In this document: positions 511 through 63,227 of the stretch, one piece after another | How positions within the stretch are numbered: position 1 is the stretch's first letter | How the letters are laid out: every line of letters begins with the position of its first letter | DNA from: Candidatus Babeliales bacterium | Lineage (GTDB): Bacteria > Babelota > Babeliae > Babelales > JBFXEV01 | Reading direction: 5' to 3' | DNA length: 64,000 bases | Assembly: GCA_050179755.1 (NCBI GenBank) | Contig: JBFXEV010000001.1 | Span: forward strand, 1,289,994-1,353,993 | Made by a program: the position numbers and the translations under genes | Notes under the pieces: generated by a model | What the model was told of the DNA's origin: nothing | The model's input: only the letters and a program-made list of their open reading frames with translations | Databases searched by the model: none

Positions 511-1386
511 ATGCTCAATATATATTACATTATTATTCTCTGTTTATGGCAAAGTTCACTTTTGGCAATGGAATCAACGCCCGCTGCTATCAGCAGAGGG
601 CACGCAAGCACACCAGACGTCTTTCCCACAACAAGATATGATGCCATTAAAGCAGAACTTGAAGCTCAACACCGCTATGAATATGAACTTGAAGACAAGC
701 TGGAACGAGGGCAGATCACGCAAGAGGAATATAATGCATATCATGAAAAGCATTTGAGAGATACGATTTCACAAATATTTCCAAAAGAACCTCACATTGA
801 TGCCGCTAATAACTGTGGCAATACACGGCTCCATTTGACAGTACGCTTTGCTAATGCGGCAACCCCGGACTCGCTTAAAGCGTGCAGAACTTTAATAAGG
901 CAAGGAGCTCACCTAAATACAAAAAACATACTTAAACAAACGCCATTATACCTTGCAGCGGTGCACAAACGATCATTAGCTATTACTACAACATTATTGT
1001 ATCCAAGCATTCAACCAACATTAGAAACCTTATTATTATGCCGAAAAAAAGGACAATTCCCCATCGACATTCGAGTATTACGCAATATTTTGGTGCATTA
1101 TATTATTTTTAATGCAATACAAACACAATTAGCAGTCTTAGAGCCATTACTTACAGAAGTTTTAGAAAGCACAACGCTCTATCGGCCTAACCCTATGGCC
1201 GGTAGAAACGTGCCCGTGATTTACAAAAAAAAAATGGGTGATTTAGTAGAAAAAAATGAAGAATTAAAAGCATTACTTGATCCAAAAAATAAAAACGTAT
1301 TAAAAGATTTAATAACAAAAAAACTGTATGCATCTATAGCCCTTACTCCAATACCAAAAGAAAAAGATGAAACCAAAATTGCTTAA
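511..1386 (+). CDS. Secreted ankyrin-repeat protein
   Basis: Signal peptide MLNIYYIIILCLWQSSLLA|MES; ankyrin motifs GNTRLHLTV and QTPLYLAA; ORF track 496..1386, likely ATG at 511. Confidence 0.75.
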   Translation: MLNIYYIIILCLWQSSLLAMESTPAAISRGHASTPDVFPTTRYDAIKAELEAQHRYEYELEDKLERGQITQEEYNAYHEKHLRDTISQIFPKEPHIDAANNCGNTRLHLTVRFANAATPDSLKACRTLIRQGAHLNTKNILKQTPLYLAAVHKRSLAITTTLLYPSIQPTLETLLLCRKKGQFPIDIRVLRNILVHYIIFNAIQTQLAVLEPLLTEVLESTTLYRPNPMAGRNVPVIYKKKMGDLVEKNEELKALLDPKNKNVLKDLITKKLYASIALTPIPKEKDETKIA

Positions 1387-2641
1387 TATTGCATTATCAC
1401 TGCTTTTTACTATTTCATTGCAAGCCATGGAAGTTATTAAGCGCCCCATATCTGAAAAATATCAAGCAGAAGCAGACAAATTAAAAGATGCCTATTTACA
1501 AGGCAAAGAAAGTATTTGGTACAAAGAAGCAAAAGCAAAAACAACACCATCTTGGTTTACAAAAGAACGCTCAGTAATATTTGCCGAACGTAATACCAAC
1601 TATGCGCTTGTTTTTTTAGGGGAAAGTATGCAGCTAGCAGATCATGCACGCATGCAATCGCTTGGCCTAAAAATGGCATGTTCCAAAAAGAGTCGCTCAA
1701 GGTTGTTGCATCAGGCAGCAGAATCTGGCTATACAGCTTTCTGCCTATTTTTACTCGATGCTCAGATATTACCAATCAATCATCGTAGAAATCATGAGAA
1801 TACGCCACTCCACCTTGCAGCTGTAAATGGGCATCTGGATACCTGCGCATTGCTTTTAGAGCACGGCGCATCAGTTAGTGTGCAAAATTGCGCGAGCCGA
1901 ACGCCTTTGCAAGAAATAGTGCTGCGGCCGAGAACCGATGAACATAGACAATGCGCTCTGTTATTGAGACAACATGGTGCACAACTTGATTTTTTTGAGA
2001 CTATATATGAACTACCAATAGATGTAGATGGTCTGCGTAAAACGAAAAGTGAAAGAAGAACAACCCTGTGTAATAAAGAATTCTCGCCAGCTAATATTTC
2101 TATGCTCAGCATGAGATTTCCCTTTTTGGCATCACTGGGTTTATCTCTTAGTGAACAGGATCTCACTGGCAGAGCCATGCTGCATCATATTGCCAAATAT
2201 ATAGCAAAAACGGTAAATCAACCGCAACAAAAGCTACCTAAAGTCCATATGCCTGACATTCTTAAAATGGTATTTGTAGAACAACAGCTCAATGAAAAAA
2301 GGCGCGCATTAACCGTTGCTGCAATGCATAAATACCGACATGACTCATTGTGGGCACGACTGCCTAGAGACGTCTTAAAAAACCATATCTTACCAGATAT
2401 CGCCCCCCTTATGTATAATGATGAAGCGGGATGCATTAAGCAATTGCTCACACGTTTAAAAGAATTACTAAGTTTAAAAGATACCCAGGGAAAATTACCT
2501 CAAGATTATGCGCCTGACAAACAAGAAATTGGCACTTTTTTTGACCCAGACAAAGTTTCTACCAAAAGGGAAGCTTTTGAGTTTTTTATCAAAGATCAGT
2601 TATTAATAATGGCAGCAAGAAAGACCCTGCTGCAGAAATAA
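1367..2641 (+). CDS. Secreted ankyrin-repeat protein with F-box-like motif
   Basis: Signal peptide ending SLQA|ME; NTPLHLAAVNGHLDTCALLLEHGA; motif LWARLPRDVLKNHILP. Confidence 0.8.
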   Translation: MKPKLLNIALSLLFTISLQAMEVIKRPISEKYQAEADKLKDAYLQGKESIWYKEAKAKTTPSWFTKERSVIFAERNTNYALVFLGESMQLADHARMQSLGLKMACSKKSRSRLLHQAAESGYTAFCLFLLDAQILPINHRRNHENTPLHLAAVNGHLDTCALLLEHGASVSVQNCASRTPLQEIVLRPRTDEHRQCALLLRQHGAQLDFFETIYELPIDVDGLRKTKSERRTTLCNKEFSPANISMLSMRFPFLASLGLSLSEQDLTGRAMLHHIAKYIAKTVNQPQQKLPKVHMPDILKMVFVEQQLNEKRRALTVAAMHKYRHDSLWARLPRDVLKNHILPDIAPLMYNDEAGCIKQLLTRLKELLSLKDTQGKLPQDYAPDKQEIGTFFDPDKVSTKREAFEFFIKDQLLIMAARKTLLQK

Positions 2642-2738
2642 AAATAGAAGGTAAATAACGACGGTATAGATAATCTCTTTAATCCAGAATGCGTTGAACT
2701 TGATGTTTACCGCGTGACAACATGAAAGGTCATCACAC

Positions 2739-3269
2739 ATGCATAAAACTACTTTACCTTTATTATTATCTCTAGCCATTTGCGGCAAACAAGGGCTCTA
2801 TGCAATGGAGCAAGCGCCTACACGCAATCAATCTTTGCCATCATGCGAACTGAGCAGATCTAGGCCTTTAAACAATGTATCTGGTCATCAAGCAGTAGAT
2901 TACCACGCATTAATTAATACCATACTTGTCGATGGTCAGTTATTGGCATGGGCACGCTCGAGCGAACCAACTGCTGCTGCAAAAATTACCGCGCTTATTG
3001 AGCATCAAGCTGATCCTAATACGCGTACACATCTTTCTGGCTATTCTGCGCTACAAACAGCTGCAATGACACCAAATATTGCAAGCGTGAAAGCGCTCGT
3101 TGTAGCTGGCGCTACCGTAGATGAGCGCGTGATAAGCTGTTTAAAAGGAGTGCGCGATGCATCTTATGCAAGCGAACGTAAAGAATCATTAAACGAGATC
3201 ATTGATTATCTTACTCAAATAAGAGATGAACAAGCGAATCAAGCACCAAAAGAGGCAAAGGAAGAATAA
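2739..3269 (+). CDS. Small secreted ankyrin-repeat protein
   Basis: Signal peptide ending GLYA|MEQ; ADPNTR..GYSALQTAA..VKALVVAGATVD. Confidence 0.7.
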   Translation: MHKTTLPLLLSLAICGKQGLYAMEQAPTRNQSLPSCELSRSRPLNNVSGHQAVDYHALINTILVDGQLLAWARSSEPTAAAKITALIEHQADPNTRTHLSGYSALQTAAMTPNIASVKALVVAGATVDERVISCLKGVRDASYASERKESLNEIIDYLTQIRDEQANQAPKEAKEE

Positions 3270-3278
3270 TTGATTATT

Positions 3279-4604
3279 ATGCCAAAAACACGAACATTAA
3301 TTTATTTACAGATTGCCACGTTAGCATTATTAACTTGCAATAATAATATATATGCCATGTTAGTAGCGCGCGCGCACAATGTAACGGTAACACATCGACT
3401 AATTCAACAACGCCCAAATGCAGAAGCTGCACCCGCTGCCCTAGCAGATGCTGGATCACAAAAAGTTCTTTGGCAACCAGAGTTTAGCGCGATAGAGCGA
3501 GGTGACCTGCCTGCCGTTAAAACTAATTTACGCGCATGGCGTTATACGCTTTTACCTTGGCATTACTATGGCCAAGCGGTAGCTGACTGTTTGTGCCATG
3601 CAGCTCGATTTTCTGCAGAAAACACAGGGCCAATCGCAGACTATTTACTCAAACGCGTAGAAACACGTTATATAACCGACCCAGAAACGCTACTGGCACA
3701 TGCAGTTGATCATAATCATACGGGAATTATTAAGTACGTTGAAAAAAAGTTTGGTGAACATTTAACAGCCCATGCACTTGATTGCGTCATTGCCACTGGC
3801 AAAGCGCCCGCTTTTCAAGCACTCTTAAGCGCTGACGTCAATCACGAATCTACGTTCATTTATAGGAATGGCCCAACCGCACTTGAGCGAGCGCTCAAAA
3901 CTTTTAATCCCCACGATACTGCAGAAACTACCTCCGGCCGACTTTTGATTCTGAACAGATTGCTTAAACTTTCTAACGCCACTGCTATTCCTGCGGGATT
4001 TGAAGCGCGCTTATGTGGGCTTCCAGAGTTTACCAAAAATAAAATAGTAGGTCTTTTACAAAAGTACCTTATTCCTGCAAGAGTGTGCATGAGTGATGAT
4101 GCACCCACGATACATGATGCTTCCGTGGGCACGGCGCTCACTGAACAAGATGGCTTAAATCAAGGCCAACCATCATTTTTCATGAGTCCATTGCATCAAG
4201 CTGCTGCTAAAAAAGATTATGCTGCATGTTTGGCAATTCTTACTGAATTTCAAGATCCAATACGGAAAGATGATATATTTCCTAGGGAGGCGTTACTTAT
4301 TACTAAAACAGCAAGTCTTAAGGAAACCAAAGTATATAACGATGCTGTGCAAACTATAGCAGCATTTACCGTTAGAATGACACAAAAATTGCTAGCAGAA
4401 TGCGCTCATTCCAAAAGAAAACGCTTGCAAGTAGATGCTCAAGGTCTTACAGCACAGGATATCGCACGATCAGCAAAAGCCCCGCAAGAACTAATTGATT
4501 TACTTGATCCCTATAAGCACGAGCCACTTCGGCAGGCTATTGGCAAAAAATTAGAAAAAATATTTACAGAAAATGGTCAAAAAATTAAATTGCAATTTAA
4601 GTAA
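3279..4604 (+). CDS. Secreted protein with degenerate ankyrin repeats; paralog of 6330..7436
   Basis: Signal peptide ending NIYA|MLV; SPLHQAAAKKDY; shares PWxYY, LLKRV and ELIxLLDP blocks with 6330..7436. Confidence 0.7.
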   Translation: MPKTRTLIYLQIATLALLTCNNNIYAMLVARAHNVTVTHRLIQQRPNAEAAPAALADAGSQKVLWQPEFSAIERGDLPAVKTNLRAWRYTLLPWHYYGQAVADCLCHAARFSAENTGPIADYLLKRVETRYITDPETLLAHAVDHNHTGIIKYVEKKFGEHLTAHALDCVIATGKAPAFQALLSADVNHESTFIYRNGPTALERALKTFNPHDTAETTSGRLLILNRLLKLSNATAIPAGFEARLCGLPEFTKNKIVGLLQKYLIPARVCMSDDAPTIHDASVGTALTEQDGLNQGQPSFFMSPLHQAAAKKDYAACLAILTEFQDPIRKDDIFPREALLITKTASLKETKVYNDAVQTIAAFTVRMTQKLLAECAHSKRKRLQVDAQGLTAQDIARSAKAPQELIDLLDPYKHEPLRQAIGKKLEKIFTENGQKIKLQFK

Positions 4605-4614
4605 TTGGGAAAAT

Positions 4615-5628
4615 ATGCATGCACTTTTAAGGTACGCTCGATTATATAGAACTTGTAGCATTACATTATTTAGTTTTATACTGGTCATGGCATATGAACT
4701 ACATGCTATGGAAAGAAACCCAAAAAGAGCAATGCTAGATGAGTATCTTGCCACAGAAAGGCATTTCAGATATTCGTTTGATACCTATACTGAAATATTA
4801 TCCGACGCAAAAGCCGGCGAATTTCTTGCAGCTCTTGATACTCAGGGCCGCCCATTACTCCACGAGGCGGCCGAGAAAGATCGAATTAACTTAGTGCTTG
4901 CATTGCTGGAAGGCGGCGCAAATGTGAATGCACGAGATGCGCAAGGTAATACAGCACTTCATTGTGCCGCAGCCCATGAAAGAAATTATGGAACAGTGCA
5001 TCAACTGATTGCTGCAGGAGCGAACGTAAACGCAACCAATACTACTGGGCAAACAGCATTGCATTACGCACAGAGTGCTACTATAGTTTCTACACTTATA
5101 GAATCTGGCGCGGATTGTCCTTTTGAGACATTTGCACAAAATAACGCACAAACACGTGTGCAAGTAACGCCGTTTCAAATGGCTCTTGAACAAAGAAATG
5201 AAAGAATCCTGATAGCTATGCTACATACAGTTTCTCCTCAAGAAGTGAATTCAATAATACCAAAGATCTTAGCGGAAAAAAATAAGCTTGATTTGAATGA
5301 AATAACTTGTATAAAATCTGCACTGAGACTCGATCCTGTATTTATAAACAATTTAGTACACAAGAGACAAGGATTATTGATGCAGCATTGCCCTTTTATG
5401 GCTCACTTAGGTTTTCTACTTTCTCTGAATGCAAGTATTGCAAGAGCTATTAACAGACAAATCGTTGAAGTGAACAATGAGAAACAAAGATTAATTACTG
5501 TTCTTGCCATACGTCACTTCTATAACGATTCAGAACTTGCATTACTACCAAGTGAATTGGTACAAAAGAACCTGTTTCCCTATTTATGCCCTCTTCTCTA
5601 TACATTAAAACAACAACCTCTCAAATAA
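4615..5628 (+). CDS. Secreted ankyrin-repeat protein with C-terminal F-box-like motif
   Basis: GANVNARDAQGNTALHCAA and GANVNATNTTGQTALH; C-terminal LALLPSELVQKNLFPYL; start uncertain (ORF track 4573). Confidence 0.8.
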   Translation: MHALLRYARLYRTCSITLFSFILVMAYELHAMERNPKRAMLDEYLATERHFRYSFDTYTEILSDAKAGEFLAALDTQGRPLLHEAAEKDRINLVLALLEGGANVNARDAQGNTALHCAAAHERNYGTVHQLIAAGANVNATNTTGQTALHYAQSATIVSTLIESGADCPFETFAQNNAQTRVQVTPFQMALEQRNERILIAMLHTVSPQEVNSIIPKILAEKNKLDLNEITCIKSALRLDPVFINNLVHKRQGLLMQHCPFMAHLGFLLSLNASIARAINRQIVEVNNEKQRLITVLAIRHFYNDSELALLPSELVQKNLFPYLCPLLYTLKQQPLK

Positions 5629-5770
5629 AAAAAAGCATTATTAATAACACAATAATAATCAAAATGTAGCATTTTTTTATTTGCGCACAATATTCAATTA
5701 GTGTATATTAAGTAAAATTAAAACAGAGTAATAACAATAATTAATTATAAATTCAAACAAAAGGATTTTT

Positions 5771-6232
5771 ATGAAATCAAAAAATGCTTACGTTAAAACA
5801 TTGTTATGTGGATTTGCTCTCTGCGCAACGAGCAATATTTTTTGCATGGTGCAATTGCCAGTTAAATTACTCGTCGCAAGAACTTTATGCTCTACAACTA
5901 TTCCTGCAGGTTCTGCAACATTGCAAAATCTAAATGAAGAATTGCAACTTTTACACTACGACTTATACAAAGTAAAAGAGCGGCTACGTGAGGTTAAGGC
6001 ATTAATTCAAGCAAAAGAAGAAAGGTACCTAGATAAATCTTCTGAGGCTACTAATGGAGAATGCTGTTCAGAAAAGAATAGAAAAAAAGATTCTAATACC
6101 GTAATTACCTATTATGATAAGCCGCAACAGCAAAAAAAACCAATACGCTGGGATTCAAGCATGGATAGACAATTGCCTGAGGAAGAATGGTCACCATGGA
6201 AAGAGGAACAAGATCGCACAAAGTTTTGGTAA
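5771..6232 (+). CDS. Secreted hypothetical protein with coiled coil
   Basis: AAGGA RBS; signal peptide ending NIFC|MVQ; heptad-rich central region. Confidence 0.65.
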   Translation: MKSKNAYVKTLLCGFALCATSNIFCMVQLPVKLLVARTLCSTTIPAGSATLQNLNEELQLLHYDLYKVKERLREVKALIQAKEERYLDKSSEATNGECCSEKNRKKDSNTVITYYDKPQQQKKPIRWDSSMDRQLPEEEWSPWKEEQDRTKFW

Positions 6233-6329
6233 ATTCTCCAACTAACGTTTGTTGATTTGTATTTTTTATATGAGCTGGTGTATATTACCTATAGTATCCA
6301 TCAGCTTTTTTAACTTTTAAGGATCAACA

Positions 6330-7436
6330 ATGTTCTATGCATTTCTTCTTCTTAGTTTAGCATCTTGCCACCACGCTCACGCAATGCTGGTCAACAGCTT
6401 GCCATCAGCGCCTGCCATGAACGGCACATGCAGTGCGTTTGAAGCGCCAGCATCTTTTGTCTTGCTTGCGCATGGTATCCCATTGAATGCAGGGTCTGGC
6501 GATCTTGCAGAAACTGATTGTGATATAACCTCATTACCGCCGGCATTAAGAAAAGTGGTGCTACAAGACAATGTGCTTAAAGCCGTTGATCGTGGTGATG
6601 CAGACCAAGTTGAAAGCCATTTTTCTCAATTAAGGCATTGGGTGCAACCATGGGATTATTATCGCCAGGGAGTTGCTATTGCATTATATCATGCTGCAAA
6701 ATTGCCACAAGAACAAACTGGTGCCGTTGTGGAATGTTTGCTCAAGAGAGTAAGCGCTACCGAAATAGAACAGCCTGCACTTTTGCTAAAAGCAGCAACA
6801 GAAAATAGACATTTTGCACTTATACAATACGTTGAAACAACGTTTCGCGGTAATCACACTGTTCAACCCGTATGCAAGGCACGCGCAGCCAACGAGAGCC
6901 TATTACACCAAGCTGCACGAGCAGGCGATTATGAAGCCTGCCTTGCTCATATAACACATTGGTCTGGACCAATAAATAAAGATCAAATAGTCCCTGTAGC
7001 CGCTGCCAAAATAATAGAAACAGCTCGTGATGAAAAATCACCAGCAGTTAAGCAAGCACGTATAAAGCTTGCACGATTTGTAGTTACACTAGGCAAACAC
7101 ATAAACACACGCTTTGCAGTAGCACGTAGCATTCGCCTTGCAAAGAATGCGCAAGGCCAAACCGCGCAACAAGTGGCAAAAGCTGCTGGCGCATCAAACG
7201 AACTTATTGCATTGCTTGACCCTCAAAACAAAGAGGTTATTCGCACAGCTATTATGATTGATATTGATAAACGTATTGAAGGTTATGTTGAACAACCTTT
7301 TGATAAACCAGTTGAAACAAAAAGCGCTGAGTCTACACTGAACGGTGACTGTGATAAGCCAGGCTTTAAGCAAGGTGATGTAATTGAGGTTAACGGCAAA
7401 ACCTATGTTGTTACAAAACACGAAAAAGTTATCTAA
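6330..7436 (+). CDS. Secreted protein with degenerate ankyrin repeats; paralog of 3279..4604
   Basis: Signal peptide ending HAHA|MLV; SLLHQAARAGDY; shared blocks with 3279..4604. Confidence 0.7.
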   Translation: MFYAFLLLSLASCHHAHAMLVNSLPSAPAMNGTCSAFEAPASFVLLAHGIPLNAGSGDLAETDCDITSLPPALRKVVLQDNVLKAVDRGDADQVESHFSQLRHWVQPWDYYRQGVAIALYHAAKLPQEQTGAVVECLLKRVSATEIEQPALLLKAATENRHFALIQYVETTFRGNHTVQPVCKARAANESLLHQAARAGDYEACLAHITHWSGPINKDQIVPVAAAKIIETARDEKSPAVKQARIKLARFVVTLGKHINTRFAVARSIRLAKNAQGQTAQQVAKAAGASNELIALLDPQNKEVIRTAIMIDIDKRIEGYVEQPFDKPVETKSAESTLNGDCDKPGFKQGDVIEVNGKTYVVTKHEKVI

Positions 7437-7454
7437 TATTTTTTATTTAAATAA

Positions 7455-7483
7455 CAGATGTAGAGTGTATAACTCTACATCTG
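7455..7483. terminator. Intrinsic terminator-like hairpin
   Basis: CAGATGTAGAGT-gtata-ACTCTACATCTG perfect 12-bp stem just after the stop at 7436. Confidence 0.6.
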
Positions 7484-7487
7484 CTTA

Positions 7488-8639
7488 ATGTGCTCGCAAA
7501 AGCTACTAAAGATATTTCTTATGCATATAAGCTTTCACGCATTGCTCACTGTAACTATGATAAGCACCTTCCCATTAAAAGCGATGGAGAAAAATGAAAT
7601 AGGCAAAATAAAAATTCCCAGTATTTTCAGTATTGCCAATACCAAGCCTGCCAAACGAGCTGAACCTGCATACACAATCCCTGCTCAGCACCAAGAAGCC
7701 TGCACGGCACTTATGGAGGCGCATACAAACAAAAAAAACAGCGTCTGTTATAAACCGGTAGCGACTATATGGAATAGTTGGAAAACAAAACTAGCAACAG
7801 CAATTGAACAGAAAGACTCACAAGCATGCGCAGAACTTCTTGCGCAAAATGGCTTAGCATATGTTGGTCAACAAGATTTATTATTTCAAACACTGCAGAA
7901 AGGCTATTACCCCCTTTGCCATGTATTACTTACTACCAGGCTGGCATCAGCACATTATGAAGACAATAGCCATAAAACACCATTATATCATGTACTTGCG
8001 CATGGCAGCGCACTGCCACCTGGCGAACTTCTTGCTCTATGCGGCCTGCTAAAGCATCATGGCGCTGCTATTGATAAACCATTAAAAGATGGTCGCTGTA
8101 TTTTTGAAAGCCTTGCCAGTAATCTTGATTTACCCATATTCTATTTTATTTTTCCTACGCTCAGAAAACTTGGCCTAAGCCCAGAAATACCTGATGATCA
8201 TGGTGTTACGACCATGCATAGGCTAGCCCGCTCTAAAAATATTAATACTAAAAGTCTTACGAATGCCGTCATTCCCTATCAAATTTATAATGAACGTAGA
8301 ACGCTGCTTACCGTGCTTTTAATACACAAATATCACCCACGTTCGGATATTGGCCGAATACCAAGAGACGTTGTGCGTGCACATATTATTCCCTATATTT
8401 GCCCTTTTGGCCGAAGACTACTTAATAGAACGGTTACTACGCAACTTGTTTTATTACGTAGACTGCTTTCTGCAAAAACCAAGCTTGGGCGCACGCCAAA
8501 AGACATTCTCGATGAAACTGGCATTATGAGACTTCATAATAGCGACTTGCTTGATCCTCAAAAAGTTGAGCAACACAGAAATTCTTTTATTGTAGCCACA
8601 AGATTATTGATGACAACATTAGATGCAGCACGCAAATAG
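7488..8639 (+). CDS. Secreted ankyrin-like protein with F-box-like motif
   Basis: Signal peptide ending PLKA|MEK (start may be 7521); KTPLYHVL; IGRIPRDVVRAHIIPYICP; paralog of 1367..2641. Confidence 0.7.
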   Translation: MCSQKLLKIFLMHISFHALLTVTMISTFPLKAMEKNEIGKIKIPSIFSIANTKPAKRAEPAYTIPAQHQEACTALMEAHTNKKNSVCYKPVATIWNSWKTKLATAIEQKDSQACAELLAQNGLAYVGQQDLLFQTLQKGYYPLCHVLLTTRLASAHYEDNSHKTPLYHVLAHGSALPPGELLALCGLLKHHGAAIDKPLKDGRCIFESLASNLDLPIFYFIFPTLRKLGLSPEIPDDHGVTTMHRLARSKNINTKSLTNAVIPYQIYNERRTLLTVLLIHKYHPRSDIGRIPRDVVRAHIIPYICPFGRRLLNRTVTTQLVLLRRLLSAKTKLGRTPKDILDETGIMRLHNSDLLDPQKVEQHRNSFIVATRLLMTTLDAARK

Positions 8640-8736
8640 CGCACCGACAGCTTTAATTACTTTTAAGCTGCTATATACTAATACCTGGTATTCATCAGCT
8701 TTTTAACAATTTTCTACTTTAAATTTACAGGACTCC

Positions 8737-8787
8737 ATGATTTACATTACGCTTCTTATTCTCACCTTAGTAACACCAACTCAATAA
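8737..8787 (+). pseudogene. Truncated signal-peptide stub MIYITLLILTLVTPTQ*
   Basis: AGGA RBS, ATG, hydrophobic 16-mer then TAA; upstream region resembles that of the gene at 6330. Confidence 0.4.
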
Positions 8788-8794
8788 TTTTTTA

Positions 8795-10081
8795 GTGATG
8801 CATTACACACACATTAAGACCTTCATTATTATTAGTATGCTGCTACACACATGCTTGATTACCTGTATGCAGCAACAAGCGGTAACACCTGGGCAAGAAG
8901 TTGATGCACTTCTAGACGTGTATCGCAATGGCGTAAGCAGCCATTACTATCAAGTGGCCGCCCGCATCAACCAATGGCCGTTAGCTTTAACGACCGCAAT
9001 TTCGGATAAGAATATACATGCATGTTTATTCCGTTTGCCCACATCTAATCTAGAAGAATGGCGCGCCAAAAAGAACAAATCAACATTGCTGCATTTTACT
9101 GCAAGTGTTGGCTATTTTTCCTTTTGCAAGTTTCTTCTTATGACTGGCATACAATGGGATCTGAGCCTGCAAAATAAACGAGGCAAGACTCCATTTTCTT
9201 GTGCCGCCCTTAAGGGCCACATGGACATTTGCGAGTTACTTGTGCGGCATAATCCTGATAATCCTGGATTGCAAGATGATTGGCCACAGCTTGCATCTAC
9301 AATTAAAGCAATACCAGCAATTGTAAGGCATCTTAAAACCGAACAAGTTCAACGCATGCTTGCCCAATCCACATTTTTGCCAGATAATCGTGGATTACAA
9401 GAAGATTGGCAATCGCTTACATGTATAATTAAAGCAATACCAGAAATTATGGGGCATCTCAAAACCGATCAAGACCGACGCATGCTAACACAATCCACCT
9501 TGTTACCTTTTATTCCGTTGCCCGTGTTAATTTTCAAATTGCATGACTTTCTTGAAGCAATTGAACCATTATGGAACAGTTACGTGCATCGCCGGAAGGA
9601 CGTTAACGTCTTTCCTTTGCTCATGCAACACAAAGCAGGTTCTACTAAACAGATCCCCATACTTAGCTGGCAAGGGGCTGAAGAAAGCGTACAAAAGTGC
9701 AAAGATGAATTGCTTTACATTCTGCCTTTTTATCAACTCCATAAAGAGCGCAATAACGCAACTACGCCTACCGTAGATCCATTCTACAAGATGCGCCAAA
9801 CCCAACGTATATGTACACTACTTGCAATTCATAAGCTTCGCGCAGAATCACCAATTTCTTGGCTTACCAAAGATGTTATCCGGTACAAAATAGTGCCATT
9901 CCTCATTGGTAATGATGTTACTGATTGCGTTAATCAACAACTTATCTTATTGCAAGAACTTCTCTCTATTATAGAGTGCCGGAAAGACGCAACTCGGCCT
10001 CTTAATGTTGCTTTTAATCCAAAGCTGGTTGAGCAGCACCGAGAAATAATTACCAACACCACACGTAAACTCATGAACTAG
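8795..10081 (+). CDS. Secreted ankyrin-repeat protein with F-box-like motif and 42-aa internal duplication
   Basis: Signal peptide ending LITC|MQQ; GKTPFSCAALKGHMDICELL; ISWLTKDVIRYKIVPFL. Confidence 0.75.
   Translation: MMHYTHIKTFIIISMLLHTCLITCMQQQAVTPGQEVDALLDVYRNGVSSHYYQVAARINQWPLALTTAISDKNIHACLFRLPTSNLEEWRAKKNKSTLLHFTASVGYFSFCKFLLMTGIQWDLSLQNKRGKTPFSCAALKGHMDICELLVRHNPDNPGLQDDWPQLASTIKAIPAIVRHLKTEQVQRMLAQSTFLPDNRGLQEDWQSLTCIIKAIPEIMGHLKTDQDRRMLTQSTLLPFIPLPVLIFKLHDFLEAIEPLWNSYVHRRKDVNVFPLLMQHKAGSTKQIPILSWQGAEESVQKCKDELLYILPFYQLHKERNNATTPTVDPFYKMRQTQRICTLLAIHKLRAESPISWLTKDVIRYKIVPFLIGNDVTDCVNQQLILLQELLSIIECRKDATRPLNVAFNPKLVEQHREIITNTTRKLMN
9257..9508 (+). repeat. 126-bp in-frame tandem duplication (2 copies)
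   Basis: DNPGLQDDW...QSTFLP and DNRGLQEDW...QSTLLP begin at 9257 and 9383. Confidence 0.85.
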
Positions 10082-10144
10082 TAGATGTGCTTCTTAAAGG
10101 TAGTTGGCACCTCTACAGTAATGAGCTGAAGTAATATTACTAGA

Positions 10145-12062: not shown

Positions 12063-12416
12063 TTAATTACCGTAAGTCATACCGTAACCAACCACTTTGC
12101 CACTTGCATCATGATATGCAGTGCCCTGTAATTTACCTTGGAAATATTCACGCGTCATAGTAGTAGCCGTAGGATATTTCAATTTCACACGATCAATTTC
12201 CGCGCGAATCGCAGGAGTTAAATTTTCATTATGATCAACATTTACTAATGTATAAACAACTTCAGCATTATCGCCATCAGTTACTATAACGCCAAATTTT
12301 GTACTCGGTTTTACTGGTGTGCCAACGCGCGCATAATCGCCCACCATAGCACAAAGCAAGCCTGTAGACAGTAATACATAAGCAAATAAAGCTCTATTTA
12401 ATTTAGTATTCATCAT
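12063..12416 (-). CDS. Small secreted hypothetical protein; paralog of 12474..12884
   Basis: AAGGA RBS; signal peptide ending LLCA|MVG; shared C-terminal half. Confidence 0.7.
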   Translation of the reverse strand: MMNTKLNRALFAYVLLSTGLLCAMVGDYARVGTPVKPSTKFGVIVTDGDNAEVVYTLVNVDHNENLTPAIRAEIDRVKLKYPTATTMTREYFQGKLQGTAYHDASGKVVGYGMTYGN

Positions 12417-16646: not shown

Positions 16647-16956
16647 GGAATCTCCATTTTCTGCTTCATACCAAATTCTGGTAAAAATCACTTCTACTCA
16701 TAATAAAGCATAACAATTTTAAGCAGCAAAACGCCATAGTTAACCCTATTGACGCTGAAGATTCAGAAGAATAAAAGCATTTTACGTGAAACTTGCACAA
16801 CTTAATCAGCGTTTGTTCGATCTGCAAAATGTACAAGAAGATTTGCAGAATATACACATAAGAATTCTTTCTTTATTGTACTGCCAGTAATCAATGTTAA
16901 TAATGGCACAGAAGTTTCAAAAGAGTAATTTTATGGGGACCACAGGGTCCACTTTT

Positions 16957-25955: not shown

Positions 25956-25956
25956 T

Positions 25957-54509: not shown

Positions 54510-54714
54510 GGTTTTTATTCCTTTAAAATTGCAATTTTAAGATGCTCTTAGTATACCTAAATTTACTTATTTTCACAAGCTGCATAGTCAAACATATCAT
54601 CCACCTACCTTGCAAAATATAAGCACTGCCGACACTCAGATGAGGCACAACACTAAGGGGTTGCAAAGATAACGGTAGGCTGGCATAGTGATAATGATCA
54701 AACAAGGAATTACC

Positions 54715-55017
54715 ATGATAAAAAACTATCTATTCATTATGCTAGGCGCAACTACCTTTACCGCACAAGCCATGAATCGCACTGAGATACAAGCACTTGA
54801 GGAACATATTGTTTATTTAAAAAGAGAACATCATTATCGTCAATCTACAGCCAATAGATTATCTACAGAAATTCTTGCGTGTTATAACGAGCGAGTTCAA
54901 GTAGATATAAACGACTTAAAAGAGCAACGTACCGATCATCAAGCTATAGCCAACCGATTATCACAAGAAATTCTTGCTGCCGCTGCACAGCTTGAAAAGA
55001 GAAAGCAAAAAAAATAA
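54715..55017 (+). CDS. Small secreted coiled-coil protein with internal repeat
   Basis: AAGGA RBS; signal ending TAQA|MNR; ANRLSxEILA occurs twice. Confidence 0.65.
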   Translation: MIKNYLFIMLGATTFTAQAMNRTEIQALEEHIVYLKREHHYRQSTANRLSTEILACYNERVQVDINDLKEQRTDHQAIANRLSQEILAAAAQLEKRKQKK

Positions 55018-55406
55018 TGAAAGCACCTATCTATATAGTAATCTATGCTGCTACGAGCTTCTTATGCAACATCAATGCTATGGAAAAGGAATTTGCACTA
55101 GCAGATATCTTTTCTCTTGTAAAACAAAAGCAAACACACCAACCTTTTATCGAAACTTTTTTTGGTCATCAATTACCCAGAGAGAAACCTCTAAGAGAGA
55201 AACGATTCATCGAATTACAAAATCAAATACATACTGAAGCTGGCGTACTGGAAGTACCAGAACTTGCAAAAATGAGCGTATTACATCATCTCTGGCTTGC
55301 TAACGCCAAAGCAGAACTCGAATATCTTAATGCTGCAAAAAATGAATGTACTGCAAAAATTCAGTCATTCACTACCTTCTTGCAAGGCGCAAAGGAAAAC
55401 ACGTAA
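55017..55406 (+). CDS. Small secreted hypothetical protein
   Basis: TAATG coupling with the upstream gene; signal ending NINA|MEK. Confidence 0.65.
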   Translation: MKAPIYIVIYAATSFLCNINAMEKEFALADIFSLVKQKQTHQPFIETFFGHQLPREKPLREKRFIELQNQIHTEAGVLEVPELAKMSVLHHLWLANAKAELEYLNAAKNECTAKIQSFTTFLQGAKENT

Positions 55407-55552: not shown

Positions 55553-56410
55553 TTATTTTTTTTTAGAACTTTTATACATAATAGCCCATGTAACAAGCGC
55601 TCTGTGCTCAGGCCTTTCAAGAGAATAACCAAACTGATGAAACGCCAGAGTTAATTCTTTTACATACACAAGCAGGGCCCACTGCAAAATTCTCCCACAA
55701 GATTCACATGGACCTTTTTCCGTATGTTCATTTTCGCAACAAATATCCATAAGAGACTCTCTTACAAATGTTTTCACGTTTGCTTTGCAGCCACCGCACA
55801 TTATATTGTTTGAGAAACATGCATTATTACGAGAACATGCATGACAAGAATCCGGAGTTATCGGTAATGCTACAAATTTTTTGTGTTTCATTGAAATATT
55901 TACGGGGAGCGCTTTAACTTTAAATAAACAAGCCGTTAACGCCCAATCTTCATCTGACATATCATGCGGCGTCAATTTATCAATACGCACCTTACATTCG
56001 CCAAGACATTGCCATACAGATAAAGGGTTGGTCAGGCAATTATTATGTCGAAAAAATAACGCCATGTTTAATAGTTTATTTATTAACCTTGGTTTTCCTA
56101 AAATGGTTTGCTGCTGTATAGAAGTAAATGTTTGCGCAAGCACATCTCCAAAAAACTTGTGTTGCTGTTCAATTGATCCTTTATTCAACACACTAGTTGC
56201 TCGTTTTAGTAACCCATCCCAAGATCGATTCTGATCGGCTTGCGAATGAAGACCTTCATTTTGCACCATGGCATCAACCGAACGTGCTAAAACCCCAACG
56301 TTACGTGAAGTTGTTGCAACTCCATTACAAGATGCGCTCATGCCAACTCTATCCATGGCAACAAGATTGCTTAGAGTAATTATCAAAACAAAAACCATTT
56401 TTTTAAACAT
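55553..56410 (-). CDS. Secreted Cys-rich hypothetical protein; paralog of the upstream gene
   Basis: MFKKMVFVLIITLSNLVA|MDR; several CxxC; ALVTWAIMY. Confidence 0.65.
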   Translation of the reverse strand: MFKKMVFVLIITLSNLVAMDRVGMSASCNGVATTSRNVGVLARSVDAMVQNEGLHSQADQNRSWDGLLKRATSVLNKGSIEQQHKFFGDVLAQTFTSIQQQTILGKPRLINKLLNMALFFRHNNCLTNPLSVWQCLGECKVRIDKLTPHDMSDEDWALTACLFKVKALPVNISMKHKKFVALPITPDSCHACSRNNACFSNNIMCGGCKANVKTFVRESLMDICCENEHTEKGPCESCGRILQWALLVYVKELTLAFHQFGYSLERPEHRALVTWAIMYKSSKKK

Positions 56411-56423
56411 AGATAATCTTTTT

Positions 56424-57191
56424 TTATTTATTATTCGATTTATTATTGCCATAAAAAATTGCCCATTTTAAAAGTGCTTTTTCTTCTTGTGTTTGTGGGG
56501 TTATTGCGTTTTCACCTAAACCGATTGCAATCTGCTTTAACTGTACGTAAAGATGATCGCGTAATTTTGTGGTGCAACAGTCACACGCATGCCCGACATG
56601 TTCAGGAGTTGCACAAAAAACGGTATCTTTGCAGCAACGCTCTAATATGCCATTTGTGACTCTTATTTCTATAAGCCTCTTACAGCTTCGGCATATTCCT
56701 GAGGCGATAAGGCATTGTTGGCCTTGATGAGTTGCCCCCACTGCAAGATCTTTAGACAGAGCATACACGTGCTCAATATTTTGGCTTGTGATAGAGCTAC
56801 CTTGCAACGTATCAACATTTTTCTTCATTTCAGCAAGAACTTGCCACAAGGTTACTGATCTTCGACTACTTTCTACAAGCGTATTATCCGTTTGACAAAA
56901 AAGCGCTAATTTAAACAAGCGTTGAGCACGATAATCATCAATACAACCTACATTGCTAATAACATCAACAGTAATCTTTTCAAGAAAAGTCAACGTTTCT
57001 TCAGGCTGCCCTTTAAAAGAGCGCGGGGCTTCACGCACCCAGCCCTGCCACAGTTGTGCGCGGGCCTCATCTTTTTCTTTTTGTGATGCAAGCACCTTTT
57101 TTGCTGAAAAAACATGGCGCGAACTACGATCCATGGCTTGCATAGAAATAGCACTAAGCATCAACATACATATACTTTTTTTGAATGACAT
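56424..57191 (-). CDS. Secreted Cys-rich hypothetical protein
   Basis: MSFKKSICMLMLSAISMQA|MDR; CRSC, CDCC; ALLKWAIFY. Confidence 0.65.
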   Translation of the reverse strand: MSFKKSICMLMLSAISMQAMDRSSRHVFSAKKVLASQKEKDEARAQLWQGWVREAPRSFKGQPEETLTFLEKITVDVISNVGCIDDYRAQRLFKLALFCQTDNTLVESSRRSVTLWQVLAEMKKNVDTLQGSSITSQNIEHVYALSKDLAVGATHQGQQCLIASGICRSCKRLIEIRVTNGILERCCKDTVFCATPEHVGHACDCCTTKLRDHLYVQLKQIAIGLGENAITPQTQEEKALLKWAIFYGNNKSNNK

Positions 57192-57337
57192 ATTAATTTC
57201 CCTAAAGTAACAATAGCGCTGCAGAGTTCTAGTATAACATGGCATGCTGTCGCTTGAATAGGGCATTTCTAGCATTGCATTGGACTATTTACCTTAATTT
57301 GCTAGACTTAAACCATACCATTTGACGAAAGGCAGCA

Positions 57338-59170: not shown

Positions 59171-59183
59171 AGGAGCACAAACC

Positions 59184-60275: not shown

Positions 60276-60280
60276 ATAAC

Positions 60281-61393
60281 CTACTTCAACTTAGCCTTTG
60301 CTTCTGCTTTGTCAAAACTTGTTGCAGCACGAAGTTTTGCTTTTTTGGCAAGCACATTGGTTGATTCTATTGGATGAGATTGCATATGGTGTAATGCTAG
60401 TTGTGCAAATAAAGCCGATATGCTGCGTTCTGTAACATCTTCCTCTAGAGTAAGCATATGCTCACAAGAGTCGTGAGGGCAGATTACATTTTTGCGCTGG
60501 TTGTTAATTTGCACCATCATTTGCTTGAGCAGCTCATCCTGCATTCTTAATAATTGCCCTTGCGCTTGCACATCAGCACACTCAGGTGTTAAATGTGGAA
60601 TCTTTGTAGAAAGATACAGTGCAACCACTTCTTCTCTTGATTCAGATCTAAATAGCGTTGCCATATTAGAATTTTCAGGATGCGGTGAAACAATATACCA
60701 TGCTCGTGCAGGCTCATGTTGCACACCCTGTGTTTGCCGTGCGTTATTTTCATGTACTGCAGAAACTGCTTGAGGCAAGGGCACCACAGCAGCTTGAGGC
60801 AACTGATATTTATCAAAAAGCTTACGCGCTGTTTCTTTACTTCTTGCAATAAGTTTGGTCATATGTTCATATAATAATGGTTGGTGTTTTGCGCCTAAAA
60901 ACCAATGCTTAAACATATTACTCAAAAGCTTTTTTTCACTGACTTCACTTTGAAGCACCACGTCACAATCGGGGCATTGCATACAATAAGGCATTAAGTC
61001 AGTTTTGCGTTCACGCAATGCATCATTATCCTGCGCTTGCATTAACGCTTTAATTTCAGCAGCGACAGTGGGAAGTGTAACCCCACGACTTCGTACTAGT
61101 TGACTCATATACGTTAACATAAAAGCTGTGCGGTCAACTGAAGCATTTATTGTGGTACTGTCTATAGGATTTACTGCATAGTACATATTTTTTTGTACAC
61201 TGTTTTGAGTCATAACTCTAGAATATTTAGGGCCATCTTCATCAGCTGAGGCAGCTGATTGTTCAACAGGGCTTATCGGACGGCCTCTTTTGCCACCAAG
61301 AATATATTCTTCATCACCATCACTATCCATCGCATGACAATAAGGAACCACAAGCAACAACAACAACAACAATGTACATAAATATTTAATCAT
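60281..61393 (-). CDS. Secreted protein with two C2H2-like domains
   Basis: MIKYLCTLLLLLLVVPYCHA|MDS; CPDC..HWFLGAKH and CPHDSC..HHMQSH. Confidence 0.65.
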   Translation of the reverse strand: MIKYLCTLLLLLLLVVPYCHAMDSDGDEEYILGGKRGRPISPVEQSAASADEDGPKYSRVMTQNSVQKNMYYAVNPIDSTTINASVDRTAFMLTYMSQLVRSRGVTLPTVAAEIKALMQAQDNDALRERKTDLMPYCMQCPDCDVVLQSEVSEKKLLSNMFKHWFLGAKHQPLLYEHMTKLIARSKETARKLFDKYQLPQAAVVPLPQAVSAVHENNARQTQGVQHEPARAWYIVSPHPENSNMATLFRSESREEVVALYLSTKIPHLTPECADVQAQGQLLRMQDELLKQMMVQINNQRKNVICPHDSCEHMLTLEEDVTERSISALFAQLALHHMQSHPIESTNVLAKKAKLRAATSFDKAEAKAKLK

Positions 61394-61394
61394 G

Positions 61395-62408
61395 CTAGTT
61401 TCCTTGTTCAATTTTTTTGCGCGCTTGTTCAAAATCGGGTGCAATCGAACCAACCAGAGTTTGAAGGCAGGGGCTATCTTGTTTATGAAATGCTGCATAA
61501 TGCACGAGTAATTCTTGCACTATGCTCTCAAAATTCGGTGCACCTACTTGATACATACAACCTTGCGCTGGGCACACCAAGCTTGTAATTATACTCCCTT
61601 GGACCATGCATTGTTTTTTTGTTTTTAAAACTAAATCTTCTTCTATTGGTTTAAAAGCGTCTAAGTGGCCTTCTATTTTTTTACTGTTTAAATATGCTTG
61701 TAGCACTTCTTCACGAGAGTCTGCAAAATAAAAATCATATATACCCTCTTTTAGAGGAGGCGTTACAATAAAGCAACGTTCAGGTGACGCTTTTAATTTT
61801 GCGCGAACATTTCTTGTTGGTTCTTCTGATTGCAAATGCTCCGACTCTTCTATTTCTTCATCTTCATTATCTGCTACATTGCGATCACGCTTTTTCTCAA
61901 ATAACAAAGGCTCTTGCTTTTCAGATTCTTCATGATCACTTGGAAATGAAACAACCTTAAACGATTTTCTCTCTTTATGCTTACGCTTGGCTTCAGCATG
62001 GGTTTCTGCCAATAATGCCGTTGCATATGCATGAAGATCTGGCTGATGTCTAGCTGTAGTATACCAATGCGCCAGAAGGGTGGATGTTAACCCTTGCTTT
62101 TTATTTTTTCCAGATGTTAATTTTGAAGTACATTGAGAATCAGGGCAAGTAATAAGCCATTTACTTGCCGCTATACTTTGCCTTCCATGCTTGTTACAAT
62201 ATTTTTGAATTTTTGCCCTCTCACTATCAACATCTAATTCAGAAGCGTGCAATACTGTATTCAACATGACTTTTTGCAATAATGCACCTTTGTATCCGTA
62301 TGTAATAATCTCTGTAGAATCTTCTGGATCAACTGCATGCCACATGCTAAAAGCTGAAATTGGAACCATACAAAAAATTAACCATATTCTTAAGATTTTG
62401 TTTGACAT
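61395..62408 (-). CDS. Secreted protein with two C2H2-like domains (paralog)
   Basis: Signal ending SAFS|MWH; CPDSQC..HWYTTARH and CPAQGC..HYAAFH. Confidence 0.65.
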   Translation of the reverse strand: MSNKILRIWLIFCMVPISAFSMWHAVDPEDSTEIITYGYKGALLQKVMLNTVLHASELDVDSERAKIQKYCNKHGRQSIAASKWLITCPDSQCTSKLTSGKNKKQGLTSTLLAHWYTTARHQPDLHAYATALLAETHAEAKRKHKERKSFKVVSFPSDHEESEKQEPLLFEKKRDRNVADNEDEEIEESEHLQSEEPTRNVRAKLKASPERCFIVTPPLKEGIYDFYFADSREEVLQAYLNSKKIEGHLDAFKPIEEDLVLKTKKQCMVQGSIITSLVCPAQGCMYQVGAPNFESIVQELLVHYAAFHKQDSPCLQTLVGSIAPDFEQARKKIEQGN

Positions 62409-62444
62409 GCATCATCCTTGCTCTTTAGTAAAGCATCAAATAAA

Positions 62445-63227
62445 TTATTTTAAGGCTTGTAATTTTGCCAAAGCTTCCTCAAAACTAGCTGCAATACGTT
62501 TTTCAATTTGTTGATAGTAATCAGAGTCTTGCGCATGCTCTATTAACTGATGCAATACTATTTTAACGCGTAATTGCGTAACTGACAATTGCAATTCCAC
62601 ATGATTACAATGTGGGCAATTTATACTATATTCATTACCGTTTTGTACTATATGTTCATTCACTACTGTTTCACTTTTTGCACGTAAAGTTGCATATTCT
62701 TGTGAAGTGGCATTATCTACCACGTATGATAGATATTTTGCAATAAGCGCTGCACGAGAATAATCAATAAAAGCCAAGTGCCTGTGCAGTTTTGGCTCAA
62801 AACACACTAGATATAAAGGTTGATTGCTGATTTGTGCATGCCACTCCGCAAGCAAAGCATCTAGCTTAGGATCATCAAGTCCAAGCGCATCTAACTCCTT
62901 ATCAAATGAACTTCTTACTAAAGGTAGACCAATGCCATTTGAGGATGCTGCAGCATTAGTAAGTTCGTCTTGTGGGCTGAGCTCAGGCATTACAAGAACG
63001 GGAGGTGGCTCAGGAAGCCTATAGATGGGTTGAAAAACATTACTTGCCTTTACAAATGGCGCCATTGGCGCAACTGTTTGCTGGCATTTTTTTGCTGCCT
63101 CCCACGGTATACGCAGAATTAATCTTTTTTGTGCTGGCTCGATAGATGCGTTACAATCTCTCTGCATGCAAAATAAATGCGTATGTACATTAAAAAAAAG
63201 CACTACTGCCGTTGTTCTCTTATACAT
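62445..63227 (-). CDS. Secreted protein with one C2H2-like domain (paralog)
   Basis: Signal ending HLFC|MQR; CPHC..HQLIEH. Confidence 0.62.
   Translation of the reverse strand: MYKRTTAVVLFFNVHTHLFCMQRDCNASIEPAQKRLILRIPWEAAKKCQQTVAPMAPFVKASNVFQPIYRLPEPPPVLVMPELSPQDELTNAAASSNGIGLPLVRSSFDKELDALGLDDPKLDALLAEWHAQISNQPLYLVCFEPKLHRHLAFIDYSRAALIAKYLSYVVDNATSQEYATLRAKSETVVNEHIVQNGNEYSINCPHCNHVELQLSVTQLRVKIVLHQLIEHAQDSDYYQQIEKRIAASFEEALAKLQALK

Follow-up and report, generated by a model that had tools for sequence, protein, structure and literature searches.

The stretch of DNA described here (hereafter the window, at its full length of 64,000 nucleotides) comprises bases 1,289,994-1,353,993 of the single 1,525,295-bp contig (G+C 39%) of an uncultured, protist-parasitic Candidatus Babeliales (Dependentiae) bacterium, a genome referred to below as G000. 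It contains 23 open reading frames (ORFs) in which a Sec-type signal peptide or leader runs directly into a methionine, which is predicted to be the first residue (+1) of the mature protein after cutting by signal peptidase I (SPase I). The arrangement extends over the whole genome, where it sets ankyrin, WD40 and orphan proteins apart from envelope housekeeping proteins, and among related genomes it is confined in strength to one subclade. The 23 ORFs are as follows, with a slash marking the predicted cleavage site and the position of the ATG that encodes the Met given for each.

496-1386 (+), signal peptide and Met, ...SSLLA/MES, weak ankyrin match; +1 ATG 568-570
1367-2641 (+), ankyrin ORF, ...ISLQA/MEV; +1 ATG 1427-1429
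2739-3269 (+), ...QGLYA/MEQ, weak ankyrin match; +1 ATG 2805-2807
3270-4604 (+), orphan, ...NNIYA/MLV, paralogue of 6330-7436; +1 ATG 3357-3359
4573-5628 (+), ankyrin ORF, ...YELHA/MER; +1 ATG 4708-4710
5771-6232 (+), orphan, ...SNIFC/MVQ; +1 ATG 5846-5848
6330-7436 (+), orphan, ...HHAHA/MLV, paralogue of 3270-4604; +1 ATG 6384-6386
7488-8639 (+), ...FPLKA/MEK, related by BLAST to the ankyrin group; +1 ATG 7584-7586
8795-10081 (+), ankyrin ORF, ...CLITC/MQQ; +1 ATG 8867-8869
10145-10918 (-), ankyrin ORF, ...GSVTA/MAE; +1 ATG 10850-10852
12063-12416 (-), small orphan, ...GLLCA/MVG; +1 ATG 12345-12347
15261-16691 (-), ankyrin repeats and a weak protein-kinase match, ...PSVLA/MAP; +1 ATG 16587-16589
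19794-20897 (-), ankyrin ORF, ...FTAFA/MER; +1 ATG 20823-20825
21129-23537 (-), 781-residue ORF starting MMQ, with an upstream in-frame leader ...VSASLG; ATG 23472-23474
30850-31614 (-), ankyrin ORF, ...GSVLA/MEK; +1 ATG 31546-31548
38934-40688 (+), beta-barrel-like, no Pfam match, ...TSVFA/MHA; +1 ATG 39060-39062
54688-55017 (+), small orphan, ...FTAQA/MNR; +1 ATG 54772-54774
55017-55406 (+), small orphan, ...CNINA/MEK; +1 ATG 55080-55082
55553-56452 (-), Cys-rich orphan, ...SNLVA/MDR, paralogue of 56424-57275; +1 ATG 56354-56356
56424-57275 (-), orphan, ...AISMQA/MDR, with an alternative site AIS/MQA three residues earlier; +1 ATG 57132-57134
60281-61498 (-), orphan, ...PYCHA/MDS, kept as ...MCHA/MDS in the orthologue of G001, a same-genus relative; +1 ATG 61328-61330
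61395-62408 (-), orphan, ...ISAFS/MWH, kept as ...PVQC/MWY in the orthologue; +1 ATG 62343-62345
62445-63227 (-), orphan, ...THLFC/MQR; +1 ATG 63165-63167

The original prediction, made from the letters of the window, listed 22 of these cases as hexapeptides spanning the site, and each hexapeptide occurs once in the window, at the ORF implied. In 21 of them the Met follows a canonical Sec-type leader, which starts with ATG, GTG or TTG, carries positive charge in its n-region, continues in a hydrophobic core and has small residues at -1 and -3. The remaining one, SLG/MMQ, belongs to gene 21129-23474, where the leader GENIKHYVLVSLFFWVSASLG lies in frame before MMQ but no ATG, GTG or TTG occurs between the upstream stop codon and the Met. 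The corresponding segment, 23475-23537 (-), holds the hydrophobic in-frame leader IKHYVLVSLFFWVSASLG with an AGGAG box a few bases before an ATA codon, and the G001 orthologue has a complete ATG-started leader, MKRFYVLIWTLLSVSTSFG/MMQ (...TSFG/MMQ); the start-less leader may reflect either a rare ATA start or the recent loss of the signal peptide through mutation of its start codon. The beta-barrel-like ORF 38934-40688 (VFA/MHA) adds a 23rd case, and the ORFs said to be without the Met (those at 40851, 42705, 44508, 46278, 29060 and 12474) do lack it. The description of the carriers as unrelated holds in that they form many separate groups, but the 23 ORFs collapse into 14 BLAST groups, the largest of which consists of seven ankyrin proteins.

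Some of these ORFs belong to local families with features of their own. The segment 38934-46019 (+) encodes four tandem, beta-barrel-like paralogues of ~500-580 residues without a Pfam match, which have common N- and C-terminal motifs (...RSQG.N..RR.VG..., C-terminal aromatic residue) and homologues at 28-29% identity in the relatives G055 and G056, and which may be a phylum-specific outer-membrane protein family; 38934-40688 is the sole Met carrier among the four. The ankyrin ORFs 1367-2641, 4573-5628, 7488-8639 and 8795-10081 (+) have a common motif in their C-terminal ~60 residues (...R.P.DV...I.P(Y/F)(I/L)...); F-box/PRANC-like ends, as in poxvirus and Legionella ankyrin proteins, were seen by eye and discarded, with no Pfam support even at E<=1. 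Four tandem paralogous orphans at 60281-63999 (-) have a CxxC...H...H stretch (e.g. CPDCDV...KHWF...KHQP), for which a likeness to C2H2-type zinc fingers was rejected, Pfam giving noise-level matches only; at least three of the four have a leader followed by Met, and the fourth crosses the window edge, its full ORF reading ...STVLC/MDS. In the exported-type protein 15261-16691 (-), ankyrin repeats at the C-terminus accompany a weak protein-kinase-like region (Pkinase E=3e-4, below the cut-off). Window positions 400-10300 were matched by three DNA runs from a single metagenome study, with no RNA run listed.

The methionine class across the genome

ORFs were called by a simple longest-ORF rule, which gave 1,513 non-overlapping ORFs in G000. 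All cleavage sites are rule-based predictions from a crude predictor that combines hydrophobicity with the -3/-1 rule: it looks for a charged n-region and an 8-residue hydrophobic core and takes the best -3/-1 site, blind to the residue at +1, and its leaders were accepted at a loose (n=745) and a strict (n=362) level. Two classes were defined. In the Met class a small residue is followed by Met at most 13 residues past the core, with uncharged residues between and a hydrophilic continuation, a definition into which the small residues at -1 and -3 are partly built; the non-Met class comprises strict leaders without a Met near the predicted site. The classes contain 169 and 185 ORFs respectively in G000, sizes that depend on the thresholds chosen.

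Met stands at the blindly predicted +1 position of 186/745 loose and 111/362 strict leaders, against a background of 2.42% of residues (binomial p ~3e-87). The claim that Met falls at an SPase I site of the -3/-1 type is therefore borne out by the 111 strict leaders in which the blind predictor chooses the bond before it, whereas the genome-wide scale of the pattern and its restriction to one subclade had been overlooked. The 169 Met-class ORFs split into 140 BLAST components, of which 127 are singletons, so the class is not one expanded family. They are scattered over the chromosome with local clusters, the window being one of these. By the predictions used here, about half of the proteins with an export signal in G000 and its closest relatives, mainly those of a fast-evolving host-interaction type, would begin with Met after cleavage.

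Aligned on the Met, the 169 leaders have a mean charge of +0.14 to +0.32 at positions -22 to -16, mean Kyte-Doolittle values of 2.1-2.9 at -15 to -8, a polar c-region, small or aliphatic residues at -3 and -1, and a mean charge of -0.42 at +2. They agree with what is expected of Sec signal peptides cut by SPase I, which have a hydrophobic region of about 8-15 residues and no Pro at -3 to +1. Position -1 is filled by Ala (50%), Gly (19%), Ser (14%), Cys (11%) or Thr (5%), and residue -3 is mostly Ala (27%), Leu (25%), Val (12%) or Ile (9%). The commonest residues at +2 are Asp (29%), Glu (23%), Gln (9%), Lys (8%) and Asn (7%); Asp or Glu occupies this position in 88/169 (52%) Met-class ORFs compared with 35/185 of the non-Met class, and residue 2 of 395 non-exported ORFs is most often Lys (17%), Ile, Asn or Ser, with Glu at 4%. 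The Met-Asp/Glu/Asn/Gln ends to which the original prediction drew attention, the type of N-terminus that NatB acetylates, are prevalent throughout the class (115/169, compared with 65/185 non-Met ORFs that have one of these four residues at +2). No wider N-terminal motif was found over +3 to +25, a segment merely modestly richer in Pro, Ser and Gln. Where Cys precedes the Met, it mostly follows Trp, Phe, Leu or Thr (LWC, IFC, LFC, ITC), and the class does not match the lipobox [LVI][ASTVI][GAS]C with Cys at +1, apart from one fitting case, LAGC/MEP.

In control DNA the blind +1 position holds Met in 1/67 leaders (1.44 Mb from 79 non-Dependentiae genomes, which yielded 3 Met-class ORFs, one with a polar +2, against 57 non-Met ones) and in 0/13 leaders from 150 kb of E. 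coli K-12, where the lone Met-class call, within the FhuA leader, was judged false. The enzyme expected to cut at these sites is encoded in the order, with two TIGR02227 (signal peptidase I) matches above the cut-off in G000 and one to three in each of 30 relatives.

A nucleotide-level cause, such as a GGAG resembling a Shine-Dalgarno (SD) core or a Kozak-like context, was considered and rejected. The choice of codons at +2 departs only mildly from that of the whole genome (GAG 15/39 against 24%, GAC 14/49 against 18%), as does that of Ala codons at -1 (GCC 20/85 against 12%, part of a slight preference for C-ending codons ahead of the ATG), and G is scarce (8%) at the nucleotide directly before the +1 ATG. 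As these shifts are mild, the signal lies mainly at the amino-acid level, and flanking-codon bias is too weak to account for it. A promoter or regulon motif common to the regions upstream of the Met-class genes was also set aside, k-mer enrichment reaching an unconvincing ~3-fold at most on 12-22 genes.

Proteins and lineages that carry the methionine

Pfam families were compared between two sets, each drawn from the window and from 200-kb samples of the same four relatives: 91 Met-class proteins (22 and 69, respectively) and 92 signal-peptide proteins of the non-Met class (7 and 85). Ankyrin matches at E<=1e-5 occur in 14/91 of the former and 0/92 of the latter (17 and 0 when the limit for the Met class is loosened to 1e-3), and WD40 matches in five and one. 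The majority of Met-class proteins have no Pfam family; among the others are PLA2_B, PLD, PEBP, endonuclease/exonuclease/phosphatase and SDR proteins, with SecD (a membrane protein and a false call) and one Omp85 as exceptions. The non-Met class, in contrast, contains Omp85/BamA, thioredoxins, M16 peptidase, SpoIID, DivIC, FtsH, SecF, glycosyl- and methyltransferases and an amidohydrolase. The proposal that the Met sets an effector-like group apart from envelope housekeeping proteins such as BamA, thioredoxins and M16 peptidase thus agrees with the counts: at predicted sites, +1 Met is unequally distributed over protein classes and is scarce on envelope housekeeping proteins.

In the whole of G000, 145 Ank_2 matches fall in 79 ORFs, whose printed N-termini, read by eye, comprise 53 with a small residue followed by Met, 13 in which a different residue follows a signal or anchor, 3 that are ambiguous and 10 without a signal. 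The ten signal-less ORFs form a tandem array outside the window (G000 C1:1,396,453-1,408,234) and start MQ or MK. As for an exported enzyme that might process the Met, G000 has two M24 peptidases, both without a signal. It also has ten Acetyltransf_1 (GNAT) matches (e.g. C1 255642-256166, 421974-422666, 589744-591090 and 1070786-1071397), about eight of them with a signal peptide or membrane anchor and none in the Met class; exported acetyl-CoA-dependent enzymes are odd for a periplasm, and as modifying enzymes these proteins are only a lead.

Sixty genomes were taken from the same phylum, all of the same order, and 18 of the order were sampled at 100-200 kb each, with 600 kb of G001 for the orthologue analysis; the relatives share ancestry and hence are not independent data points. 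The ratios of Met-class to non-Met ORFs, the former counted in canonical form (Met, then a polar or charged residue), are listed below.

Rule-bearing relatives: G001 12:23; G016 19:15; G011 18:23; G029 9:8
Other relatives with Met-class ORFs: G019 8:24; G005 3:13; G018 3:7; G030 3:12; G015 2:4
Also with Met-class ORFs: G055 3:26; G046 2:27; G006 1:16
Genomes with no canonical Met-class ORF: G056 0:21; G013 0:15; G060 0:14; G024 0:8; G002 0:11; G021 0:14

In a maximum-likelihood tree of DnaK, rooted on E. coli, G016, the pair G000 and G001, and the pair G011 and G029 form one clade (support 96/92), a placement that rests on this single gene, and the clade comprises exactly the genomes in which the ratio is near or above 0.5. 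In the comparison with related genomes that had been proposed as a check, a single well-supported subclade, made up of three families, is therefore the only one to show the rule strongly, and the samples of six genomes have no canonical Met-class ORF. This contrast does not stem from a scarcity of effectors elsewhere, because more than 140 Ank_2 matches occur in each of G056, G060 and G055. In G055 an exported ankyrin family (L045, L128, L138 and L142) has leaders of the form ...(V/I)(M/I)S-MYA-(A/F)QE, in which the Met is perhaps at -3 and the site ambiguous; this MYA-ending family inflates the Met-class count of that genome (12, of which 3 are canonical). A requirement for a specialised second signal peptidase was discarded as a candidate: copy number varies between one and three over 31 genomes and does not track the rule, with one copy in the rule-bearing G011 and G029 and two in the rule-poor G030 and G018.

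Retention of the methionine and its possible explanations

Comparison of G000 with 600 kb of G001 gave 364 reciprocal-best pairs, 34 of them with a Met-class G000 member; the median identity of these 34 is 44%, falling to ~27% over the 24 positions around the site. Unsupervised alignment keeps the Met in 19/34 pairs, compared with 80/212 (38%) for internal Mets of the same proteins. Several of the misses are register errors, and an alignment-free test for a small residue followed by Met in a signal-peptide context was hence applied, which finds it in 23/34 orthologues of Met-class proteins but in only 3/40 of non-Met proteins; the printed pairs, read by eye, give 25/29 evaluable cases. Where both orthologues could be classified, 12 pairs were Met on both sides, 2 had Met in G000 only, 1 in G001 only and 16 in neither. 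Paralogues with signal peptides inside G000 belong to the same class in 80/96 pairs overall and in 44/48 at 30-60% identity. Alignment of paralogues at the site itself (identity 0.29 at +1 compared with 0.15-0.25 nearby) was set aside as noisy, since ankyrin repeats fall out of register in it. Since the Met is retained above internal Mets in orthologues that are only ~44% identical, it appears to be maintained now by selection.

One of the alternatives raised with the original prediction was that the +1 ATG initiates a signal-less cytoplasmic isoform; a variant makes it the sole true start and treats the leader as an artefact of gene calling. The reading frame always restarts with ATG, as this would require, and the SLG/MMQ gene may indeed now begin at its Met. 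SD cores (GGAG, GAGG or AGGA, 5-17 nt upstream) precede 85/169 leader starts but 3/169 +1 ATGs, against a baseline of 238/7,503 (3.2%) at internal Met codons; as only 198/450 long-ORF starts have one, and about half of real starts thus lack it, the missing core is indecisive alone, and a 20-nt context matrix was therefore trained on 148 unambiguous starts versus internal ATGs. Held-out starts have a median score of +2.1 and Met-class leader starts one of +3.1 (80% above 0), whereas the +1 ATGs have a median of -3.9 with 14% above 0, a share identical to that of internal ATGs. No -10-like composition was found upstream of the +1 ATG in the 169 Met-class ORFs, and untranslated DNA would not yield complete n-, h- and c-regions in ~169 genes. 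Initiation at the +1 ATG, which lacks start-codon context, is accordingly very improbable as a general explanation, although an ATG at this place invites mis-called starts, by which annotation would hide the signal peptides.

The explanation preferred here, as the leading candidate and yet at somewhat less than an even chance, is that the +1 Met, commonly with an acidic neighbour, is a sorting mark read on the bacterial side after cleavage. The signal peptides would be of the ordinary Sec type, cut by SPase I after a small residue, and the exported, fast-evolving ankyrin, WD40 and orphan proteins of the subclade would have been selected to expose Met, with Asp or Glu usually next to it. The Met was probably at first the start codon of the gene, before a leader came to be added upstream, and may now be kept as a two-residue N-terminal tag that splits proteins leaving the periplasm, through type II secretion, vesicles or another route, from resident envelope proteins with other residues at +1. 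Excerpts of PMC4378268 (on a cultured member) and PMC4776705 name type II as the sole system for secretion found in Dependentiae; with that system alone reported, exported and resident Sec substrates would need telling apart. That the Sec substrates of one cell fall into two classes, close in size and different in both mark and function, argues for sorting, as do precedents for sorting information placed just behind a cleavage site (the Bacteroidetes lipoprotein export signal, the Lol +2 rule and the PEXEL N-terminus). A more specific form, in which Met-Asp/Glu is a second-step export or host-targeting code read by a putative receptor that arose in one Babeliales subclade, is more tentative still.

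A number of observations weigh against sorting by such a tag. BamA of G019, one of the beta-barrel paralogues of the window and the SDR of G001 carry the Met, and RING finger, MavL-like and PLA2_B/phospholipase proteins sit in the non-Met class. Asp or Glu is absent from +2 in 81/169 Met-class ORFs, and under strict alignment the retention of the Met (19/34) is marginally above that of internal Mets (p = 0.06). The state can also flip between close relatives: the SDR of the window reads NTA/QPQKKA where its 76%-identical G001 orthologue reads LFA/MEAEQKKG, and the Met of the barrel at 38934 occurs in G000 only, not in the G001 orthologue. Sister lineages export ankyrin proteins whose predicted +1 residue is Lys, Leu, Ala, Gly, Val or Ile, and the tag is thus not required for the lifestyle. 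A clade-specific reader protein was not found, and the copy number of signal peptidase does not follow the rule. The type II system is usually regarded as recognising folded substrates rather than linear tags, a two-residue tag carries little information, and the sites come from a crude predictor, so that cleavage, secretion and localisation are themselves predicted.

Two further explanations are less probable than a sorting mark on the bacterial side and clearly more probable than a second start codon. Host mimicry, the likelier of the two but improbable as it stands, would have the Met-Asp/Glu/Asn/Gln end resemble an ordinary host N-terminus after delivery into the protist cytosol, where it would escape N-degron pathways and might be acetylated by NatB, acting on stability or function in the host and not on sorting in the bacterium. 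A retained Met followed by Asp, Glu, Asn or Gln is a NatB-type eukaryotic N-terminus, Met with a hydrophobic residue at +2 is of the degron type, and Met with a small residue at +2 is removable by Met aminopeptidase. The choice of Met and the spectrum at +2 are best accounted for in this way: besides the 115/169 NatB-type ends, hydrophobic residues occupy +2 in 12/169 compared with 43/185 non-Met ORFs, and small ones in 19/169 compared with 67/185, and the carriers are effector-like rather than envelope proteins. Parts of PMC4378268 assume that signal-peptide ankyrin proteins of the phylum reach the host cytoplasm, and for the proteins considered here such delivery is presumed only. Mimicry fits poorly, however, with the exported ankyrin proteins of sister lineages, which have Lys, Leu and Ile at the predicted +1 position. 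These residues are destabilising under the classical N-end rule, and Ala, Ser, Thr and Val, which are also stabilising, would do as well as Met; NatB, moreover, works on nascent chains.

That the Met is purely a fossil, an old start codon left without function when a signal peptide was recently gained upstream by extension or fusion, ranks next, as an unlikely account of the whole pattern; the clade contrast would then mean that such genes arise at a high rate. A fossil accounts for the choice of Met with no extra machinery, and as an origin it is plausible: gene 21129-23474 starts at MMQ, its leader lost or never endowed with a canonical start, while the G001 orthologue has the whole leader, and six paralogues without a signal peptide, ankyrin proteins in weak repeat-protein alignments, start at a Met aligned to the +1 Met. 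Met-class genes are also young or fast-evolving, with a median orthologue identity of 38%, where the non-Met class reaches 62% and other ORFs 74%; those of G016 (0/21), G011 (2/20) and G029 (0/11) almost never have a G000 homologue at the chosen cut-offs, and flips of state between close orthologues, as in the SDR, would be expected. What the fossil leaves unexplained is the acidic +2 (52% Asp or Glu, against 4% Glu at residue 2 of non-exported ORFs, and unlike the MQ and MK starts of the signal-less ankyrin array) and the retention of the Met, which is kept in 23/34 diverged orthologues in spite of ~27% identity of its neighbours and 38% retention of internal Mets, with 44/48 paralogue pairs agreeing in class. 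Sister lineages, in addition, expanded exported ankyrin proteins with no Met left behind. The fossil start codon put forward in the original prediction may therefore describe where the Met came from better than why it stays. The order of preference is thus sorting on the bacterial side, mimicry of host N-termini, a functionless fossil and, far behind, a dual start, with a small share left for explanations not thought of.

Relation to known systems

The extracts of PMC6561590, PMC4378268 and PMC4776705 describe very large Dependentiae secretomes (44% of coding sequences in one genome) and ankyrin proteins that mostly have signal peptides (79/126 in another); a term search of these papers, whose supplements could hold signal-peptide tables, returned neither "methionine" nor "cleavage". 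A literature search over main texts and listings, supplements aside, likewise found no description of +1 Met in this phylum. What appears to be new is Met as the +1 residue, bound to a protein class and to a subclade; lineage-specific +1 rules as such are already known from the Bacteroidetes Q-rule. The wider question is by what route hundreds of Sec-dependent, eukaryote-like proteins of Dependentiae reach their hosts. Here a simple mark divides one cell's secretome into two halves, one of housekeeping proteins, the other of fast-evolving ankyrin, WD40 and orphan proteins. It offers a way to list candidate effectors of uncultured genomes from sequence alone, and the rule-bearing subclade and its sister lineages form a natural contrast for phylogenetic profiling of a reading machinery. 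If Met-Asp/Glu proved to be a second-step code, two residues would be enough to delimit the complete effector set of uncultured parasites by sequence, and the code would point to a new exit route from the diderm periplasm.

Under the Q-rule, Gln is found at +1 of most SPI substrates and is converted to pyroglutamate (passages of PMC5837995 and PMC10653852). The likeness lies in a lineage-specific +1 preference among Sec/SPase I substrates that is visible only by comparative genomics and thought to act after cleavage, and the present pattern would be a second case of lineage-wide selection on the residue after the signal peptidase site. It differs in the residue, since the blind +1 position of G000 holds Met in 111/362 leaders but Gln in 21/362, and in extent, covering about half of the substrates and one functional class of one subclade where the Q-rule covers most substrates of a phylum. 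We know of no modifying enzyme for a +1 Met, and glutaminyl cyclase would not act on it.

In the Lol "+2 rule" of E. coli lipoproteins, a short motif directly behind the cleavage site decides whether a lipoprotein stays or moves. The lipoprotein export signal of Bacteroidetes, in the portion of PMC5080379 that describes it, is a short, often acidic motif after the cleavage site that decides the move to the surface. The Met class is alike in having a short, often acidic motif directly after the cut, for which a sorting role is proposed here; those proteins, however, are lipoproteins, which signal peptidase II cuts at the Cys of a lipobox, whereas the Met class lacks the lipobox.

The PEXEL/HT motif of Plasmodium, as presented in sections of PMC3567231 and PMC4740378, is cut by a protease of the secretory pathway, which exposes an N-terminus that marks the protein for host export. 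Here too the setting is an intracellular parasite in which the new N-terminus after the cut, and not the signal peptide, is proposed to act as the export mark, and a second-step code, if true, would be a bacterial counterpart of the PEXEL N-terminus or of the Bacteroidetes lipoprotein export signal. The two differ in that PEXEL belongs to a eukaryotic parasite and depends on a dedicated protease, plasmepsin V, and a longer motif, whereas the Met of the Babeliales subclade follows what is predicted to be an ordinary bacterial signal peptidase site.

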